Assembly (NCBI GenBank): GCA_964464515.1
Contig: CAYXGP010000001.1
Span: forward strand, 69,984 to 133,983
DNA from: an uncultured Enterobacterales bacterium
GTDB taxonomy: Bacteria; Myxococcota_A; UBA796; UBA2385
DNA length: 64,000 nt
Reading direction: 5' to 3'
Each line of letters opens with the position of its first letter. The first letter of the stretch is position 1. This document shows, piece by piece, positions 48,124 through 56,992 of this stretch. The translations under genes and the position numbers were made by a program. The notes under the pieces were generated by a model. It was not told the DNA's origin, did no database searches, and worked only from the letters and a program-made list of their open reading frames with translations.

Positions 48124-50243
<2,120 letters not shown>

Positions 50244-50247
<4 letters not shown>

Positions 50248-51947
50248 CGCGCCTCCCGGGAGAGACGGTCGATGGCGTCGGCCAGCGGGCTGGGCTGCTG
50301 CGTCCCGGTCTCCAGATCCCGGAGCGCCACCTGGCCGGTCTGCCACTCTTCTGCGCCGAAGATCACGGCGAAACGCGCCCCCGCGTGGTTGGCTCGGCCG
50401 ACCTGGTGCCGGAGCGAGAGGGCGTCGCCCGAGTGGAGCTGCGGGAGGGTGCAGGAGGCCTGGACGCCGCGGGTCCGGAGCTGCGCGACGAACGTGAAGG
50501 CCGCGTGCTGGAGGTCCGGATGCTGGACCGCGACGTAGACCCCGCGGCGCGCTGCCGGTCGGGGAGGAGGCAGGGCCGCGGCGAGGCGCTCCACGCCGAA
50601 AGACATCCCCACGCCCGTGAGCAGATCGCCGATGTGCTCCAGCGGCGGCGGGGCGCGACCGGTCCGCAGGGCCCGCGTCTCCCGCGCCCGCTCGTACAGC
50701 CAGCGGTGGAGATCCTCGTAGCGCCCCCCGCCGCAGATGTCGGTGTGGGTGGCGGCGGTGTTCGGGGTGTGGATCTCGAAGGTCAGGCCCGTGTAGTAGC
50801 GGATCCCCCTACTGGCCGAGGCGGTGAGGAGGAGGGGGACCGGCGCCGCGTCGGGCAGCCCACCAAGCTCATCGCACAGCCAACGCAGGCGATCGCGGTG
50901 CGCGCGCGCTGCGTCTCCGGTGATGAGTGGATCGATCTGCGCGAAGAAGCGATCGGGCTCGGGATCGAGCGCCGCCAGCGTCAGCACCGTCCGACTCACG
51001 TCTTCCCAGCTTCCGCCCTGCGGCCAGCCGGGGCGATGGGTCTGGTTCCAGAGCATCCAGAGCGCCTCGTCGTACAGCTCCGGCAGCCGGGCGCGCCAGC
51101 GCGACAGGGGCACCTCAGTCGGCGAGAACAGCTCAGGCCAGCGCCGCTCCGCCTCTTCCCGGGACGCCCCGGTCAGGTGGGTGAGTCGACGCAGCAGCTC
51201 CGGGATCAGGCCGCGCATGTAGTTGGCGAGCTGGGCGTCGCTGCCGCGAACCCGCATCCGGACACGCGAGGAGATCACCAGGCCGTTGGCGACGGCATCG
51301 CGGGTCTTCCCGGTGAGGCCGAGGTCGGAGAGGATCTCGCGGAACAGCGCGTTGTGCCCGAGGTGCAGCCGCCAATCGGGCACGCCCACGGCCGTCATGC
51401 AGTCTCGGGCCACGCACAGCACCTCCAGATCCGCGTAGGCGCTGGAGCTGCCCACCAGCTCGATCCCGATCTGCCGGAACTCGCGAAATCGCAGCGGCGA
51501 GGGGTGGACGTCCCGGAACACCTGCCCCGCGTACGCCAGTCGATGCGGCAGATCCGGCGGGCGGCCGTGGTCGAGCAGGCGCGTGACGAACGCCCGGGCC
51601 AGGGGAGCGGTGAAGTCGGGGCGGAGGGCGACGTCGTGGGTGGGCTCGACAGGACCCGCGCCCGGCACACCGCCGGGGAACTCCGCAGCGTCCGAGACCC
51701 GCGCCATCACGAGCTGGTGGTAGAGCGACTCGCCGATGCGATCGGGGTGGTACAGCTCCCGGTACTCGATGGTGGGCACGCCGGTGGGCTCGAAGCCATA
51801 CCGCTCGAACACCTCCATCAGCCGCGCTTCGATCCATCGATGGCGGCGACTGGTGGCGCGGGTCTGATCGGGGACGCCTGCGGGGCGCGTGTAGTCCAGC
51901 GCGGTCAGCTCAGCGGGGGCCACATCGGGCTGTGAAGGTGGATGCAC
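50244..51947 (-). CDS. Divergent HisZ/HisRS paralog retaining a C-terminal anticodon-binding domain
   Basis: LRPDFTAPLAR, RLAYAGQVFR...REFRQIGIELVG, LGH, RGIRYYTG, GGGRYE, SFGVERL, C-terminal HQVGRANHAGARFAVIFGAEE...VALRDL; GTG 51947 after GGAGG. Confidence 0.8.
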
Positions 51948-52005
51948 CGATGGACCTCCGGGCGAGTCGCGCCGGGAGCAGCTAACACGGCCCCCCTCCG
52001 CGAAC

Positions 52006-52965
52006 TCAGGAAGAGACCCACAGCGACAGCCCCCGATGATCCGAGCCGGGGATCGCGAAGTGCGCGACGCCGCCCGCGCTCGCGGCGCCGACCAGGACAT
52101 GATCCAGCACGAAGAACGGGGCCTTCGGCCACCCCCCGCCGACCGGCCAGCTCACCGCCCGCAGCCCCCAGCGCAGCAGGGGATCAGACAGCCCCTGCGT
52201 CACGAGTCTGCGCCACGCAGCGCCGAGGGGCACCCCGTTCAGATCGCCGGCGACGACCACACCGTCTCCGGCGCGGCACGGCCCCCAGTCCCGGACCATG
52301 CGCCCGCCAGCGATCGCGTCGGCGATCCGGGCGACGTAGGGGCCGAGCCCGGTGGGGTCGTAGGGAGCCGGCGGCGGCCCGTGGATGCCGAGCAGGCAGA
52401 GACCAGACGACAGGCGGACCAGCGCGAGCGGCATCGCCATCGTCTGAGAGCCGAACGTCGGCGTGACCGCGGCCGCGCAGCCCGGATCGCGGCAGAAGAC
52501 CGCGGTGCCGTGCGAGACCCGCGGCATCTCCTCGTCGTAGTTGTCGGCGACGCGGTGGTAGCCCGGCAGGGACTCAGCCCGCCGCTCGATGGTGACGACC
52601 ACCGCGGCGCCGGTCGCCGCCAGGGCCGCGGCCATCGCGGGGGTGGTCGCGGCGTCCGCGAAGGAGTTGACGTTGGCGACGACCACGTGGGTGCCCACGG
52701 CGGGCCCCTCCGGGGGCGGGAGCCAGCCGCCAGCGACCACGCCGACCACCCCACACAGCAGGGGAGCGACGACAGCGCGGCGACGCAGCCCGACCGCCAG
52801 GGCCCACAGCGGCCACACGGCGAGCAGCCAACGCGGCGCCATCGCCAGCAGGGCCGCCGCGGCCTGACCGGTGACGTGTTGAGTCGGACAGAGGAGCGAC
52901 AGGACCAGACAGAGCGCGCTCAGGAGGGCGGGCCCCAGGCTCCAGAGCAGGGTCTGCGCAGTCAT
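52006..52965 (-). CDS. Membrane-anchored endonuclease/exonuclease/phosphatase (EEP, YafD-like)
   Basis: Three N-terminal TMs; ANV, AGDLN, LDHVL, GSDHR; TGATG overlap with the kinase stop. Confidence 0.88.
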   Translation of the reverse strand: MTAQTLLWSLGPALLSALCLVLSLLCPTQHVTGQAAAALLAMAPRWLLAVWPLWALAVGLRRRAVVAPLLCGVVGVVAGGWLPPPEGPAVGTHVVVANVNSFADAATTPAMAAALAATGAAVVVTIERRAESLPGYHRVADNYDEEMPRVSHGTAVFCRDPGCAAAVTPTFGSQTMAMPLALVRLSSGLCLLGIHGPPPAPYDPTGLGPYVARIADAIAGGRMVRDWGPCRAGDGVVVAGDLNGVPLGAAWRRLVTQGLSDPLLRWGLRAVSWPVGGGWPKAPFFVLDHVLVGAASAGGVAHFAIPGSDHRGLSLWVSS

Positions 52966-55277
52966 CACCTGTGCAGCATGGTGTCGCGGTCGCCGACCAC
53001 TACATAGGTCCAACCCAACGCCTCCATACGGGTATAGAACACGAGCGCGGGCTCATCTCTGTGCGACACCTCGTCGAAGCCCGAGGCGCCCTCTCGCACC
53101 GCTCTGGCTACCGACTCGATTGGGAAGGGAGGCAGCTCCAGCACGTCGGTGCCCGTCGCGGTCTGGGCCTGCTCTCCCGAGCGCACCACGACCCGAGCTT
53201 GTTCATCGAGCAGGTAGGTCTCCCACACCCCGGGGACCGTCGGGAGGTCGAGAAGCTGCTCGATCACGAACTCAAACGTGAACTCGACGCCCGCCACGCC
53301 GCGAAAGGCGCCCTCGTCTCCGTACAGCGACATGGCGCAGGGGAGAATCAGCCCCTGGCCGAGGGCATCCAGGTAGGGGCTCCCCCACTGGGGGCCTTCT
53401 TGATGGGCCGCCAGCTGGTACCACGGCCGGGTCCGGGGATCGTACCCGGCGGGATAGCCGCCCTTGCCCGGGTAGCTGTTGTGTATCCCCTCCTCGAGGG
53501 CCACATACGACCAGACCAGCGGCACGCCCTCGTCCATGATCAGGTCTCTCGCCTCATCCCGGGTCAGATGGCTGGCCCCGGGCCCCCTGCTCGACAGCAT
53601 CATCTGCTTGAACTGATGACGCAAGGGCGCCAGCTGCAGCAAGCGGGTGCGGATCGTCGCCCCGTCGTCCAGGGGAGTCTCCAGAGAAACCCCGGGAGCC
53701 AGCTTGAACACGGTCCAGTCCAGGCTCACGTTTCTGCGGTAGCGGGCGGACGACGTCACGCCTGGAGGTGAGCTGGCGGGATCTGAGAAGTCCGCCGCCA
53801 GGTAGAACGGCTGGGCCCCTGTTTCCTGTCTGTGGGGCTCTTGCCTGAGGGCCTGCACCGCTGCGGCCGCCAGCCCCTGGAGCAAGCCCTCGTAGATCAA
53901 GAAGTGGGCGTCGATGTGGTGGGCCTGCGTAGAGACGGAGGTGAGCAGGCTGCCCAACGTGTCTGCTCGCACGCGGGCGGTCTCCTGGCCGTGCGTGTAG
54001 GTGACCAGCGAGCCGGTGACCGTCAGGAACAGAACACCCAACATGACCAGCATGATCACGAGGGTGGTCTCGTAGTGGGATCGGACCCAGCGGGCGGCGC
54101 TCTGGAGCGGGGTGTCCGGGGCCGCGATCACCGCCTCTCCGCCGAGGAACCGCCGGATGTCCTCGGCGAAGGCCTCGACGGTGGGGTAGCGGTCTTCGGG
54201 GTCGATCATGGTGGCCTTGTCGATGATGGCCCGGAGCTCCCACGGGATCGTCACGCCAGAGACATAGTGTTCGATTGGGTTTCGGACGCCCTCCTGCGCG
54301 CTCGTGATCAGCGCGTCGTCCTTGCCTGGCACCGCTCGCGTGAGCGTGACCAGCTCGAAGAGCACCAGCCCGAGGCCGTAGAGATCGCTCCTGGGATCAA
54401 GGCTGGCGGGATCGCCCAGGGCCTGCTCAGGCGACATATGGGAGAACGTGCCGACGATAGCGCCGCTTCGGGCCTCTTCGCTGGGAAGCGCAGACTCGCT
54501 GCTGGCGAGATCCAGGCCGCCGTCCGGCAGAGAGTCCCGAGCGACGCTGCGCGCGACGCCCCAATCCATGAGGTACACCTCATTGTAGGGGCCGATCATG
54601 ATGTTGGAGGGCTTGAGATCCCGATGGATGATGCCCTTCCCGTGGGCATAGGCCAGGGCATCACAGATCTTGAGGAAGTGCTCGAGTCGAGTGGCGAGTC
54701 TGTGCTCCTCCGGCAGGGGCTGTGCCTGATCACGGAGCTTTCGGCTCTCGAAGATGTACCGCTTGAGCGTGCGGCCCTGGATGAGCTTCATGGTGTAGGA
54801 GAGGCTGCCCCCGGTCTCGAACATCTGGTAGACAGGGACAATGTTGGGGTGCTCGAGCTGGGCCGTTATCTGAACCTCTCGAAAGAAACGCAGCTTGGCG
54901 TCAGAGACGCTGATCGCCGCGGGCAAGATGCGCTTGAGAGCGACCGTACGGCGAAGATCATGCTCGCGGACTGCGAAGATCTCCCCCTCCCCCCCCTTGC
55001 CGATCGGCCCCAGCAGATCGAGCTTGCCGTCGATGTGCGGCATCCCGTCGTCGGCGTCCTCGACCTCCAGGCACGCGACCGGCAGGTCGGAGACCCCGGC
55101 TTCCGAGCCCGACTGCAGCGACTGGTGGGTCTCGGCGTCGATGTGATCGCGGTTCAGCAGCCAGTACAGAAAGCGATGGATGTTCTCCGAGCCCGTGTCC
55201 TCTTTGAACGTCCCGTACAACGCTCGAAGCCTAGGGGCGGGGATGGGGAGCACCTTCTGGAGCTCGGCAAAGTCCAT
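52965..55277 (-). CDS. Hanks-type Ser/Thr kinase with single TM and C-terminal dCache sensor domain
   Basis: GKGGEG, VALK, HRDLKPSN, DWG, MSPEQ; TM about 54000-54066; YDPRTRPWY...WGSPY...GVAGVE. Confidence 0.92.
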   Translation of the reverse strand: MDFAELQKVLPIPAPRLRALYGTFKEDTGSENIHRFLYWLLNRDHIDAETHQSLQSGSEAGVSDLPVACLEVEDADDGMPHIDGKLDLLGPIGKGGEGEIFAVREHDLRRTVALKRILPAAISVSDAKLRFFREVQITAQLEHPNIVPVYQMFETGGSLSYTMKLIQGRTLKRYIFESRKLRDQAQPLPEEHRLATRLEHFLKICDALAYAHGKGIIHRDLKPSNIMIGPYNEVYLMDWGVARSVARDSLPDGGLDLASSESALPSEEARSGAIVGTFSHMSPEQALGDPASLDPRSDLYGLGLVLFELVTLTRAVPGKDDALITSAQEGVRNPIEHYVSGVTIPWELRAIIDKATMIDPEDRYPTVEAFAEDIRRFLGGEAVIAAPDTPLQSAARWVRSHYETTLVIMLVMLGVLFLTVTGSLVTYTHGQETARVRADTLGSLLTSVSTQAHHIDAHFLIYEGLLQGLAAAAVQALRQEPHRQETGAQPFYLAADFSDPASSPPGVTSSARYRRNVSLDWTVFKLAPGVSLETPLDDGATIRTRLLQLAPLRHQFKQMMLSSRGPGASHLTRDEARDLIMDEGVPLVWSYVALEEGIHNSYPGKGGYPAGYDPRTRPWYQLAAHQEGPQWGSPYLDALGQGLILPCAMSLYGDEGAFRGVAGVEFTFEFVIEQLLDLPTVPGVWETYLLDEQARVVVRSGEQAQTATGTDVLELPPFPIESVARAVREGASGFDEVSHRDEPALVFYTRMEALGWTYVVVGDRDTMLHR

Positions 55278-55447
55278 ATGGAGCTCCCGTGCTGGGGTCC
55301 AGCTACCACGGAGGTCGTCTCACCGGCCTGGAGCGGCGGACCGGGCGGATGCAGCCGCTGAAGGGGCGAGAGACCACCAGGCTGGGGCGGCGATACGACG
55401 CCGTGAATTCAGGTTGATACAGTGCCTCCCTGCCCCTCGAGGTGCCC

Positions 55448-56992
55448 ATGACAGCGTCCCTGATCCTGTGTCTGCTCACCACCGCGCTGGCCCAGGATCT
55501 CCCCACCGATTCCCCTCCGGAGCCGCTGCCGGAGGTCCCAGAGCCGCTGCCGGAGGTGCTGGAGCTGCCACCCGAGCCGCCGAACCCCAACGCCTGCCGG
55601 GGGAGCGCGATCTTCCCAGCACCCGACTGGAGCGACGTCAGCGCGCAGATCCGCTCCGAGCGCCCCGAGGCCGTCGCCGCGTTGGAGGAATACGCCTTCT
55701 CTCCCGACCTGGATCGCGCCGATCCCGAGCGCCGCGGCGTACGCACCGACGGCGTGGTCATCGTGCATGGCGGGCGGATTATCTACGAGCGCTACGGCGG
55801 ACCCTACGGCCCGGACACCCTCCACCTGGCGTGGTCGATGTCCAAGACCCTGGTCGGGCTGTACGCCGGCATCGCCGTGGGAGATGGCTCGCTCACCCTG
55901 GACAGCTCCGCCTGCGACGCCGTCGCCGGGCTGCCCGAGACAAGCTGCGCCGTCCACCTCGACCACCTGCTGCAGTTCTCGTCGGGCTTCGACTGGCTGG
56001 AGACCTACGAGGGCCAGAGCCCGGTCGCCTCCAGCGTGCTCGCCATGCTGTACGGACAGGGCCAGGACGGCATGGGCGCCTTCGTCGCCGGCCACGCGGC
56101 CCGCGACGCCCCTGGCAGCACCTACATGTACAGCTCCGGCGACACCAACGTGATCACCCGCATGCTCGACGAGGCGTGGCGGCCGGAGCACGGCGAGCGC
56201 TGGCCCCACGCCCGGCTGTTCGAGCCGCTGGGCATGCCGCGCGCTGTCTTCGAGCGGGATCGCAGCGGCGTCATCGTCGGCAGCAGCTGGTGGTGGTCGA
56301 CGCCGCGAGACATGGCGCGGGTGGGGCTGCTGCTGCGCGAGGACGGCTGCTGGCAGGGAGAGCGGCTCGTGCCCCCCGGTTGGATCGGCTCGATGAGCAG
56401 CATGAACGACGCCATCCAGCAGGCCGCCTGGGACCGATCCGGCAGCGACGTGCAGGGGCGCCAGCTCTGGCTCAATCAGCAGGTCGACTCGCAGGGGATG
56501 GTCCGGCGGCCCTGGCCCCACGTGCCCGACGACGCCGTGGCCGCCATGGGTCACTGGAAGCAGTCGATCACGGTGATCCCCAGCCTCGACCTGGTGGTCG
56601 TGCGCACCGGCGACGACCGCGACGGCAGCTTCAGCCCCGATCGCTTCCTGTCGCTGTCCATCGCCGTGTCGGGACAGGGGCCCATCCTGGAGCCCGGCGA
56701 CTTCGACGCCCCGGACAACCCACCGTCCGCGCTCGCCCCGAACCGGGAGCGCAAGTACGACACCGGGCTGCTCCGCATCGCCACCGGCTTCGCCGCCAAG
56801 GAGGGGTGTAGCTGCGCGTTCGTCGCCGGACTCGACGACGACACCTGCCGGGAGTGGCTGAAGGTCAGCCCCGACGTCGCGAAGATGCGCTTTGATCACG
56901 ACGAGAAAGCGGTGCGCGCGCGGGCCCTGGGGATGGCCCGGCGCAGCGCGGTGTATGTGAACGCCGAGCAGGGGTGTCGGCTGGAGCCCTGA
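55448..56992 (+). CDS. Exported serine hydrolase (beta-lactamase-related, class C-like)
   Basis: Signal peptide, SMSK (SxxK), YSS, GH motif. Confidence 0.88.
   Translation: MTASLILCLLTTALAQDLPTDSPPEPLPEVPEPLPEVLELPPEPPNPNACRGSAIFPAPDWSDVSAQIRSERPEAVAALEEYAFSPDLDRADPERRGVRTDGVVIVHGGRIIYERYGGPYGPDTLHLAWSMSKTLVGLYAGIAVGDGSLTLDSSACDAVAGLPETSCAVHLDHLLQFSSGFDWLETYEGQSPVASSVLAMLYGQGQDGMGAFVAGHAARDAPGSTYMYSSGDTNVITRMLDEAWRPEHGERWPHARLFEPLGMPRAVFERDRSGVIVGSSWWWSTPRDMARVGLLLREDGCWQGERLVPPGWIGSMSSMNDAIQQAAWDRSGSDVQGRQLWLNQQVDSQGMVRRPWPHVPDDAVAAMGHWKQSITVIPSLDLVVVRTGDDRDGSFSPDRFLSLSIAVSGQGPILEPGDFDAPDNPPSALAPNRERKYDTGLLRIATGFAAKEGCSCAFVAGLDDDTCREWLKVSPDVAKMRFDHDEKAVRARALGMARRSAVYVNAEQGCRLEP

Follow-up and report, generated by a model that had tools for sequence, protein, structure and literature searches.

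Amino-acid-binding dCache_1 domains (dCache_1AA) are recognized by an amino-acid motif on which ligand predictions for thousands of uncharacterized receptors are based, and Ser/Thr kinases are listed among the receptors that carry such a domain (Gumerov et al. 2022, PMC8915833). For one of them, a kinase of Enhygromyxa salina (WP_106093935.1), the domain was found by isothermal titration calorimetry to bind amino acids (PMC8915833), with affinities of 15 uM for L-Asp, 48 uM for L-Glu and 162 uM for D-Asp (PMC12358799). Here we present an analysis of a receptor Ser/Thr kinase gene on the minus strand, at positions 52965-55277 of a 64,000-nucleotide stretch (the window) of contig CAYXGP010000001.1, from an uncultured member of Myxococcota_A (assembly GCA_964464515.1). 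Its product and the E. salina protein are alike in being Hanks kinases from Myxococcota whose dCache_1 domain lies outside the cytoplasm and carries the amino-acid motif. The linkage of an amino-acid Cache domain to such a kinase, taken as atypical in the original prediction made from the letters of this DNA, is therefore not new, having been published and validated by calorimetry. Two features have not been reported before: the Cache domain has the protein's sole membrane helix on its N-terminal side, and the distal module of that domain holds a subdomain of ~110 residues that also occurs in sensors of PP2C phosphatases and has a single structural look-alike, a faint one, in the VWA_N region of alpha2delta. 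Taken together, the findings make it fairly likely that the protein is an active single-pass Hanks receptor kinase that responds to a free amino acid, or to a very close analogue, outside the cytoplasmic membrane.

The closest known domains are those of PctA of Pseudomonas aeruginosa (PDB 5ltx, 5t65, 5t7m) and, grouped with it, PctB, PctC, CtaA, Mlp24, Mlp37 and Tlp3. In PctA, two membrane helices flank the domain and the C-terminal one signals to the chemoreceptor; more generally, the signaling membrane helix of dCache_1 proteins has been described as 'always located C terminally' (PMC8915833). In the kinase, by contrast, the domain itself is C-terminal, the sole helix precedes it, and a Hanks kinase provides the output. 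Furthermore, Glu665 stands where PctA has Asp173, and the ~110-residue subdomain is absent from PctA and from PctA-type domains. The same motif and pocket occur in alpha2delta-1, within its first dCache_1 domain (8x90, 8hmb, 7vfs, 8fd7) and in CACHD1 (8s7c, 9eq6) (PMC8915833), which, unlike the kinase, have a VWA domain after the first half-motif and a second dCache_1 domain; their anchor is Asp and their output that of a channel subunit, whereas the kinase has Glu and a kinase output. In overall plan, with an N-terminal Hanks kinase, one helix and a C-terminal sensor, the protein matches the PknB/PknD-type kinases, from which it differs in having dCache_1 as its sensor rather than PASTA repeats or a beta-propeller; its scores against the full-length NCBIfam models of this type are far below the cut-offs (215 vs 839 bits and 180 vs 450 bits). 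For receptor kinases of this plan, activation through ectodomain-driven dimerization is expected.

A kinase that ends with its Cache domain

The features of the gene, all on the minus strand, are as follows.

52965-55277 (-): whole gene, receptor Ser/Thr kinase, 770 aa, stop codon included (open reading frame list and translation)
55023-55277 (-): N-terminal extension, residues 1-85 (no Pfam match; family consensus mostly x)
54171-55010 (-): Hanks-type protein kinase domain, residues 90-369 (Pfam Pkinase; kinase part of the NCBIfam PknD/PknB-like models; motif scan)
53997-54068 (-): sole transmembrane helix, residues 404-427 (Kyte-Doolittle scan, flanking residues)
53853-53996 (-): long N-terminal Cache helix, residues ~428-475 (helix 2-54 of the ectodomain model, pLDDT 96-98)
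53520-53852 (-): inserted subdomain at residues 476-586, made of three short strands and a helical hairpin, after the long helix and before the distal module's first strand
53244-53519 (-): membrane-distal PAS-like module with the predicted ligand pocket, residues 587-678 (Pfam dCache_1 and MCP-like_PDC_1; HMMER alignment to PctA; model)
53418-53444 (-): YDPRTRPWY with Y612, R617, W619 and Y620, carboxylate-binding in PctA (HMMER alignment)
53373-53375 (-): Tyr635, equivalent to PctA Y144, on the amino-group side of the pocket (HMMER alignment)
53283-53285 (-): Glu665 at the position of PctA Asp173, GVAGVE vs GVVGGD (HMMER alignment, family census)
52968-53243 (-): membrane-proximal PAS-like module, residues 679-770 (model strands at ectodomain residues 260-339; the dCache_1 profile is matched to its end, 240/240)

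The gene is a single stop-free reading frame with a GC content of 0.85 at third codon positions (GC3) and codon-position GC as in a real gene. A public gene call (P0002) is 100% identical to the 770-aa translation and has 751 aa, so the true start may lie 19 codons further in. The N-terminal extension is weakly conserved across the kinase family and has no domain recognized by Pfam. The kinase domain matches Pfam Pkinase above the cut-off (E 4e-34), and its catalytic motifs are complete: the Gly-rich loop (GKGGEG, 93-98), the VAxK lysine (VALK, K115), the alphaC Glu (E134), the HRDLKxxN motif (HRDLKPSN, 218-225), the DFG-type Mg loop (DWG, 238-240) and the APE-type motif (SPE, 282-284). The prediction of a Hanks-type receptor Ser/Thr kinase is thus borne out, as is that of a single-pass protein that stops right after its Cache domain, since only one hydrophobic helix (404-427) is present and none follows at the C-terminus. 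Arg/His-rich residues (RWVRSH) flank this helix on the kinase side, which places the kinase in the cytoplasm and the C-terminus outside.

The AlphaFold model of the ectodomain (predicted local distance difference test, pLDDT, 93.8; predicted template modeling score, pTM, 0.90) has the dCache_1 fold, with a long N-terminal helix followed by a distal and a proximal PAS-like module. Against Pfam dCache_1 (PF02743), the whole protein scores 33.5 bits (E 4e-8, residues 608-761) and the ectodomain alone 35.9 bits (E 7.6e-9), both short of the curated gathering cut-off of 45 bits. The match is limited to profile positions 88-240 because the inserted subdomain interrupts the N-terminal part. All 31 aligned family members match the same model, with a best E of 2.5e-23, and a HMMER search of all PDB sequences gives the PctA ligand-binding domain (5ltx) as the top match (E 6e-10). 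Failure to score as dCache_1 had been named as one refutation; by the gathering cut-off it formally applies to this one protein, but the E-value, the family-wide matches and the fold overrule this, and the dCache_1 identity is secure despite the sub-threshold score.

The protein terminates with the proximal module, and the membrane helix is N-terminal to the sensor; the same holds for 30 of 30 homologs, so that the canonical wiring through a C-terminal helix is absent from all of them. In the model, helix 428-475 runs on from the membrane helix and is the one physical connection between sensor and kinase. Because no other membrane helix exists, a signal must leave through this first long helix, and the family would thereby show that a dCache_1 domain can signal through an N-terminal helix, contrary to the rule cited above.

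Glutamate and aspartate at the amine-anchor position

The HMMER alignment sets GYDPRTRPWY, PY.D and GVAGVE of the kinase against GYDPRSRPWY, PYVD and GVVGGD of PctA, in a register far beyond chance. Y612, R617, W619, Y620, Y635 and E665 thereby fall opposite PctA Y121, R126, W128, Y129, Y144 and D173 (numbering of PMC8915833), five of the six being identical and the sixth a conservative change from Asp to Glu. The carboxylate half of the dCache_1AA motif (Y121, R126 and W128, plus Y129) is therefore complete. The published rule for the motif puts Y144 at 13-17 residues after the first half (PMC8915833); here, 14 residues separate Y620 from Y635. At the Asp173 position, the kinase has Glu665, so that strictly it falls outside AA_motif; the substitution is conservative, and the variant probably functions in the same way.

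The amino-acid motif with Glu in place of Asp had been recognized from the letters alone, and both landmarks were placed exactly, YDPRTRPW at 53421-53444 (residues 612-619) and the Glu of GVAGVE at 53283-53285. The spacing pattern given with them also stands, except that each of its two numbers is one short: Y635 lies 16 residues after W619 (15 after Y620) and E665 lies 30 after Y635. The latter spacing is 29 in PctA, the difference being a one-residue gap in the HMMER alignment.

To place Glu665 in a family context, relatives were collected in three censuses. A search with the ectodomain yielded 44 full-length relatives, nearly all of them with a kinase and a dCache_1 domain, the named ones coming from Myxococcota metagenome-assembled genomes and H. 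ochraceum. Within this set, R617 is kept in 43, W619 and Y620 in 42 each and Tyr635 in 40, while position 612 is Tyr in 29 and Phe in 15; position 665 is Glu in 35, Asp in 8 and Val in 1. For the second census, genomes of the same phylum contributed another 30 relatives, which brought the counts to 60 Glu and 23 Asp, or 48 and 11 where the other five motif residues are intact. The third covered 130 further cluster representatives found with a profile of the inserted subdomain and gave 70 Glu and 52 Asp (34 and 25 with an intact motif). Overall, among ~210 relatives, ~60% have Glu and ~35% have Asp.

Glu is thus the majority state of the family and not the unusual exception that had been supposed. 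Moreover, the two residues exchange among close relatives while the other motif residues stay fixed. On the maximum-likelihood tree, parsimony counts 11 changes between them, at least 4 of which are forced by well-supported branches; for example, an Asp protein (L007) is nested in a clade of 99% support with the Glu proteins L004 and P0005. The censuses and the tree thus indicate that Glu is a hallmark of the kinase-linked family and is interchangeable there with Asp, which argues for a conserved role as amine anchor and against a new class of ligand. In the ligand-binding domains of ionotropic glutamate receptors, Asp as well as Glu is used to anchor the alpha-amino group.

From these features we infer the class of ligand, the part played by Glu665 and the route and sign of signaling. 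The ligand would carry both a carboxylate and an amino group and would sit in the membrane-distal module, its carboxylate held by Y612, R617 and W619 and its amino group by Y635 and the carboxylate of Glu665, in the role of PctA Asp173. The signal would return via the long first Cache helix and the membrane helix to the juxtamembrane segment, where most likely the packing of the dimer changes and alters trans-autophosphorylation of the kinase. If Glu works as well as Asp, a census built on Asp would overlook over half the members of a large kinase family, which numbers at least 236 clusters at 50% identity. The universal amino-acid motif would then also include an anchor of the Glu type, passed over by censuses based on the motif.

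Several points weigh against amino-acid sensing of this kind. Position 173 is sensitive, since both D173A and D173N abolish binding by PctA, and the main text of that study has no D173E (PMC8915833). Glu was found in none of ~65 other bacterial dCache_1 domains that share the half-motif [YF]DPRxRPWY, and it therefore appears not to be freely tolerated outside the kinase family. A literature search returned no binding report for any Glu-type member. The insert might close over the pocket or change its shape. Finally, the E. salina kinase was compared by its published description only. WP_106093935.1 was not among the named matches of the homologue searches with this ectodomain or the family profile, and weak matches in one family (f10), considered as candidates for the E. 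salina kinase, proved not to be kinases.

Glu might instead mark a changed class of ligand. Its acidic side chain is longer and shifts the amine anchor by roughly the length of one bond, so that the candidates would be small amines, a modified amino acid, or amino acids of the beta or gamma type. This would fit the restriction of Glu at this position to the kinase family and the precedent that PctC, with the same motif, binds gamma-aminobutyric acid; the amine and purine motifs of dCache_1 domains are also reported to derive from the amino-acid motif (PMC10589655; bioRxiv 10.1101/2023.10.26.564149). Ligand switching within the family is further indicated by the drift of other motif positions in some clades (YAFYYE, FQWYYE, YRKY..). 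Nevertheless, an alternation of Glu and Asp with the rest of the motif unchanged fits near-equivalence better, and the intact Y, R and W half means that the ligand should still bear a carboxylate. No alignment column clearly co-varies with Glu/Asp, in a test that is small, confounded by phylogeny and weak. On this evidence we regard a changed ligand class as unlikely, and the more specific proposal of a shift toward beta-amino acids or histidine derivatives found no support, given the swapping of Glu and Asp among kin and a histidine-related neighborhood that is not conserved (see below).

The subclades in question keep the rest of the motif and lack the carboxylate-binding Arg or Trp (L018, L025 and L031 with YAFYYE; L014 and L015 with FQWYYE), and several cluster representatives have YRKY.. 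as their motif. Such drift suggests repeated switching of ligands within the kinase family.

It is more improbable still that the ectodomain is a module for dimerization or protein docking, for instance with a periplasmic partner, that binds no small molecule and keeps the motif for structural reasons. The related domains of CACHD1 and alpha2delta also act as protein-interaction scaffolds (from the titles of 8s7c, 9eq6 and channel complexes), the insert adds a surface of no assigned use, and many family members have degenerate motifs; yet every pocket motif residue is retained here and in 40-60% of the family, which points to selection on ligand binding, and every bacterial domain with an intact motif that has been tested bound amino acids (PMC8915833). 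Sensing of an amino acid through the distal pocket thus remains the reading that we prefer.

The inserted subdomain

Modeled alone, the ~110-residue insert folds with a pLDDT of 88 and a pTM of 0.75. A profile built from it matched 510 cluster representatives, 236 of them at E <= 1e-10, and among the listed matches with at least 600 residues, 95 of 99 have a kinase catalytic loop. A homologous insert is present in sensors linked to SpoIIE phosphatases (hhalign probability 92%, E 7e-7). These SpoIIE (PP2C) and HD-GYP proteins, from other phyla (L045:9716-11911, L047:9788-11890, L053:444-2819, L050:1761-3764), have the half-motif at about residue 200 with the insert before it. They differ from the kinases in their outputs, their Asp anchor and their classical wiring, in which the sensor is followed by a second membrane helix, HAMP and the output domain. 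The shared insert and half-motif imply that Ser/Thr kinases and phosphatases use one sensor subtype, to which the Tautonia marina phosphatase described by Gumerov et al. (2022) may also belong.

The family profile ranks CACHD1 first in PDB (E 8.4e-21), and its first non-kinase match in a large database is a eukaryotic VWA_N/VWA protein (E 1.2e-24). Whole-domain structural alignments cover ~300 residues with alpha2delta vs ~230 with bacterial domains, and in a Foldseek search with the insert, the top rows are all alpha2delta (residues ~104-223, the VWA_N region), weakly, at E 1-2. These matches raise the idea that, among bacterial proteins, the kinase- and phosphatase-linked dCache_1 subfamily stands nearest to the amino-acid-binding domain of eukaryotic alpha2delta/CACHD1, with the insert as the counterpart of VWA_N. 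We hold this only tentatively and rather doubt it. Were it true, Ser/Thr signaling proteins of the Myxococcota type would be a candidate donor lineage, a question left open by Gumerov et al. (2022); a link between the insert and the drug-binding domain of alpha2delta would bear on how that domain arose from bacteria, and it is put forward only as a lead. Pfam VWA_N (PF08399) gave no match at E <= 1 in any of 31 family members. Identification of the insert as VWA_N by sequence was rejected, as hhalign of the insert profile against the eukaryotic VWA_N protein gave a probability of 0.04%.

The insert also matches a Heimdallarchaeota protein, but only weakly. On a contig labeled Candidatus Heimdallarchaeota MAG_8 (DXJL01000010.1; L067:1-2912), a reading frame truncated at the end of the contig has in order a weak VWA_N match, the half-motif YDPRTRPWY, directly a VWA domain (E 5.6e-18) and the rest of dCache_1, which is the alpha2delta/CACHD1 arrangement. 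Its origin was placed near the last eukaryotic common ancestor by Gumerov et al. (2022, PMC8915833). The adjacent gene encodes a complete dCache_1 domain with a weak VWA_N match, and further neighbors encode a leucine-rich repeat (LRR)/Prok-RING protein and a DRG-type GTPase. A literature search found no paper that joins dCache_1, Asgard and VWA.

Genomic context

In a sample of 401 genomes from the phylum, 61 have matches to the ectodomain, often in several copies. The present gene itself is largely unremarkable: it encodes another receptor kinase predicted to sense amino acids, in a large family found mostly in myxobacteria. Its GC content (64-67% over positions 53000-55500) is lower than that of its surroundings (69-74%), and its nearest relatives, at 44-48% identity, belong to other families of the class, compared with 32-40% within its own family; lower GC and closer relatives elsewhere hint at paralogy or transfer. 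A paralog in the same genome (G000:C29:28882-29823; L002, L120) has an ectodomain 44% identical, is of the Glu type with the motif YRWYYE and lies in an unrelated neighborhood. A third, weak match is found on contig C37 of this genome.

Three genes follow the kinase on the same strand.

52006-53013 (-): EEP-family phosphoesterase, downstream of the kinase
50244-52100 (-): HisRS-like protein (paralog), downstream of the EEP gene
48124-50346 (-): aromatic amino-acid (histidine) ammonia-lyase, HAL, downstream of the HisRS-like gene

In its longest reading, with a TTG at 53013 as start, the EEP gene shares 49 bases with the end of the kinase gene, stop included (52965-53013), and co-transcription of the two is possible. 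That the kinase senses histidine, urocanate or a derivative and controls the EEP, HisRS-like and HAL genes is nonetheless very improbable: the genes are packed head to tail, a promoter and terminator scan (otherwise uninformative) found no terminator-like site from the kinase stop to the EEP gene, and L-His as an amino acid would suit the motif, but relatives of EEP, HisRS-like, HAL or aldehyde dehydrogenase are absent from all 17 kinase-homolog loci, read over 10 kb to either side, a Cache kinase or EEP stands beside the HisRS-like/HAL pair in none of 7 other genomes, three genomes that bear the pair (G172, G207, G247) have no ectodomain match at all, and in a further one (G044) kinase homolog and pair are on separate contigs. 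The neighborhood being conserved in neither direction, a histidine or urocanate link drawn from gene context is rejected; the adjacency is local to this genome, and the kinase has no specific tie to its histidine-related neighbors.

The HisRS-like gene and an enlarged HAL gene are themselves adjacent in all 7 other genomes examined (L134-L140; 38-48% and 54-58% identity) and form a conserved module independent of the kinase. An aldehyde dehydrogenase gene lies within a few kb of the pair in two of the 7 genomes. In one genome (G172:C20), a Hanks kinase domain is encoded on the opposite strand ~4 kb from the pair (L135:13734-14498); it is 33% identical to the present protein in the kinase part only and has no Cache match.

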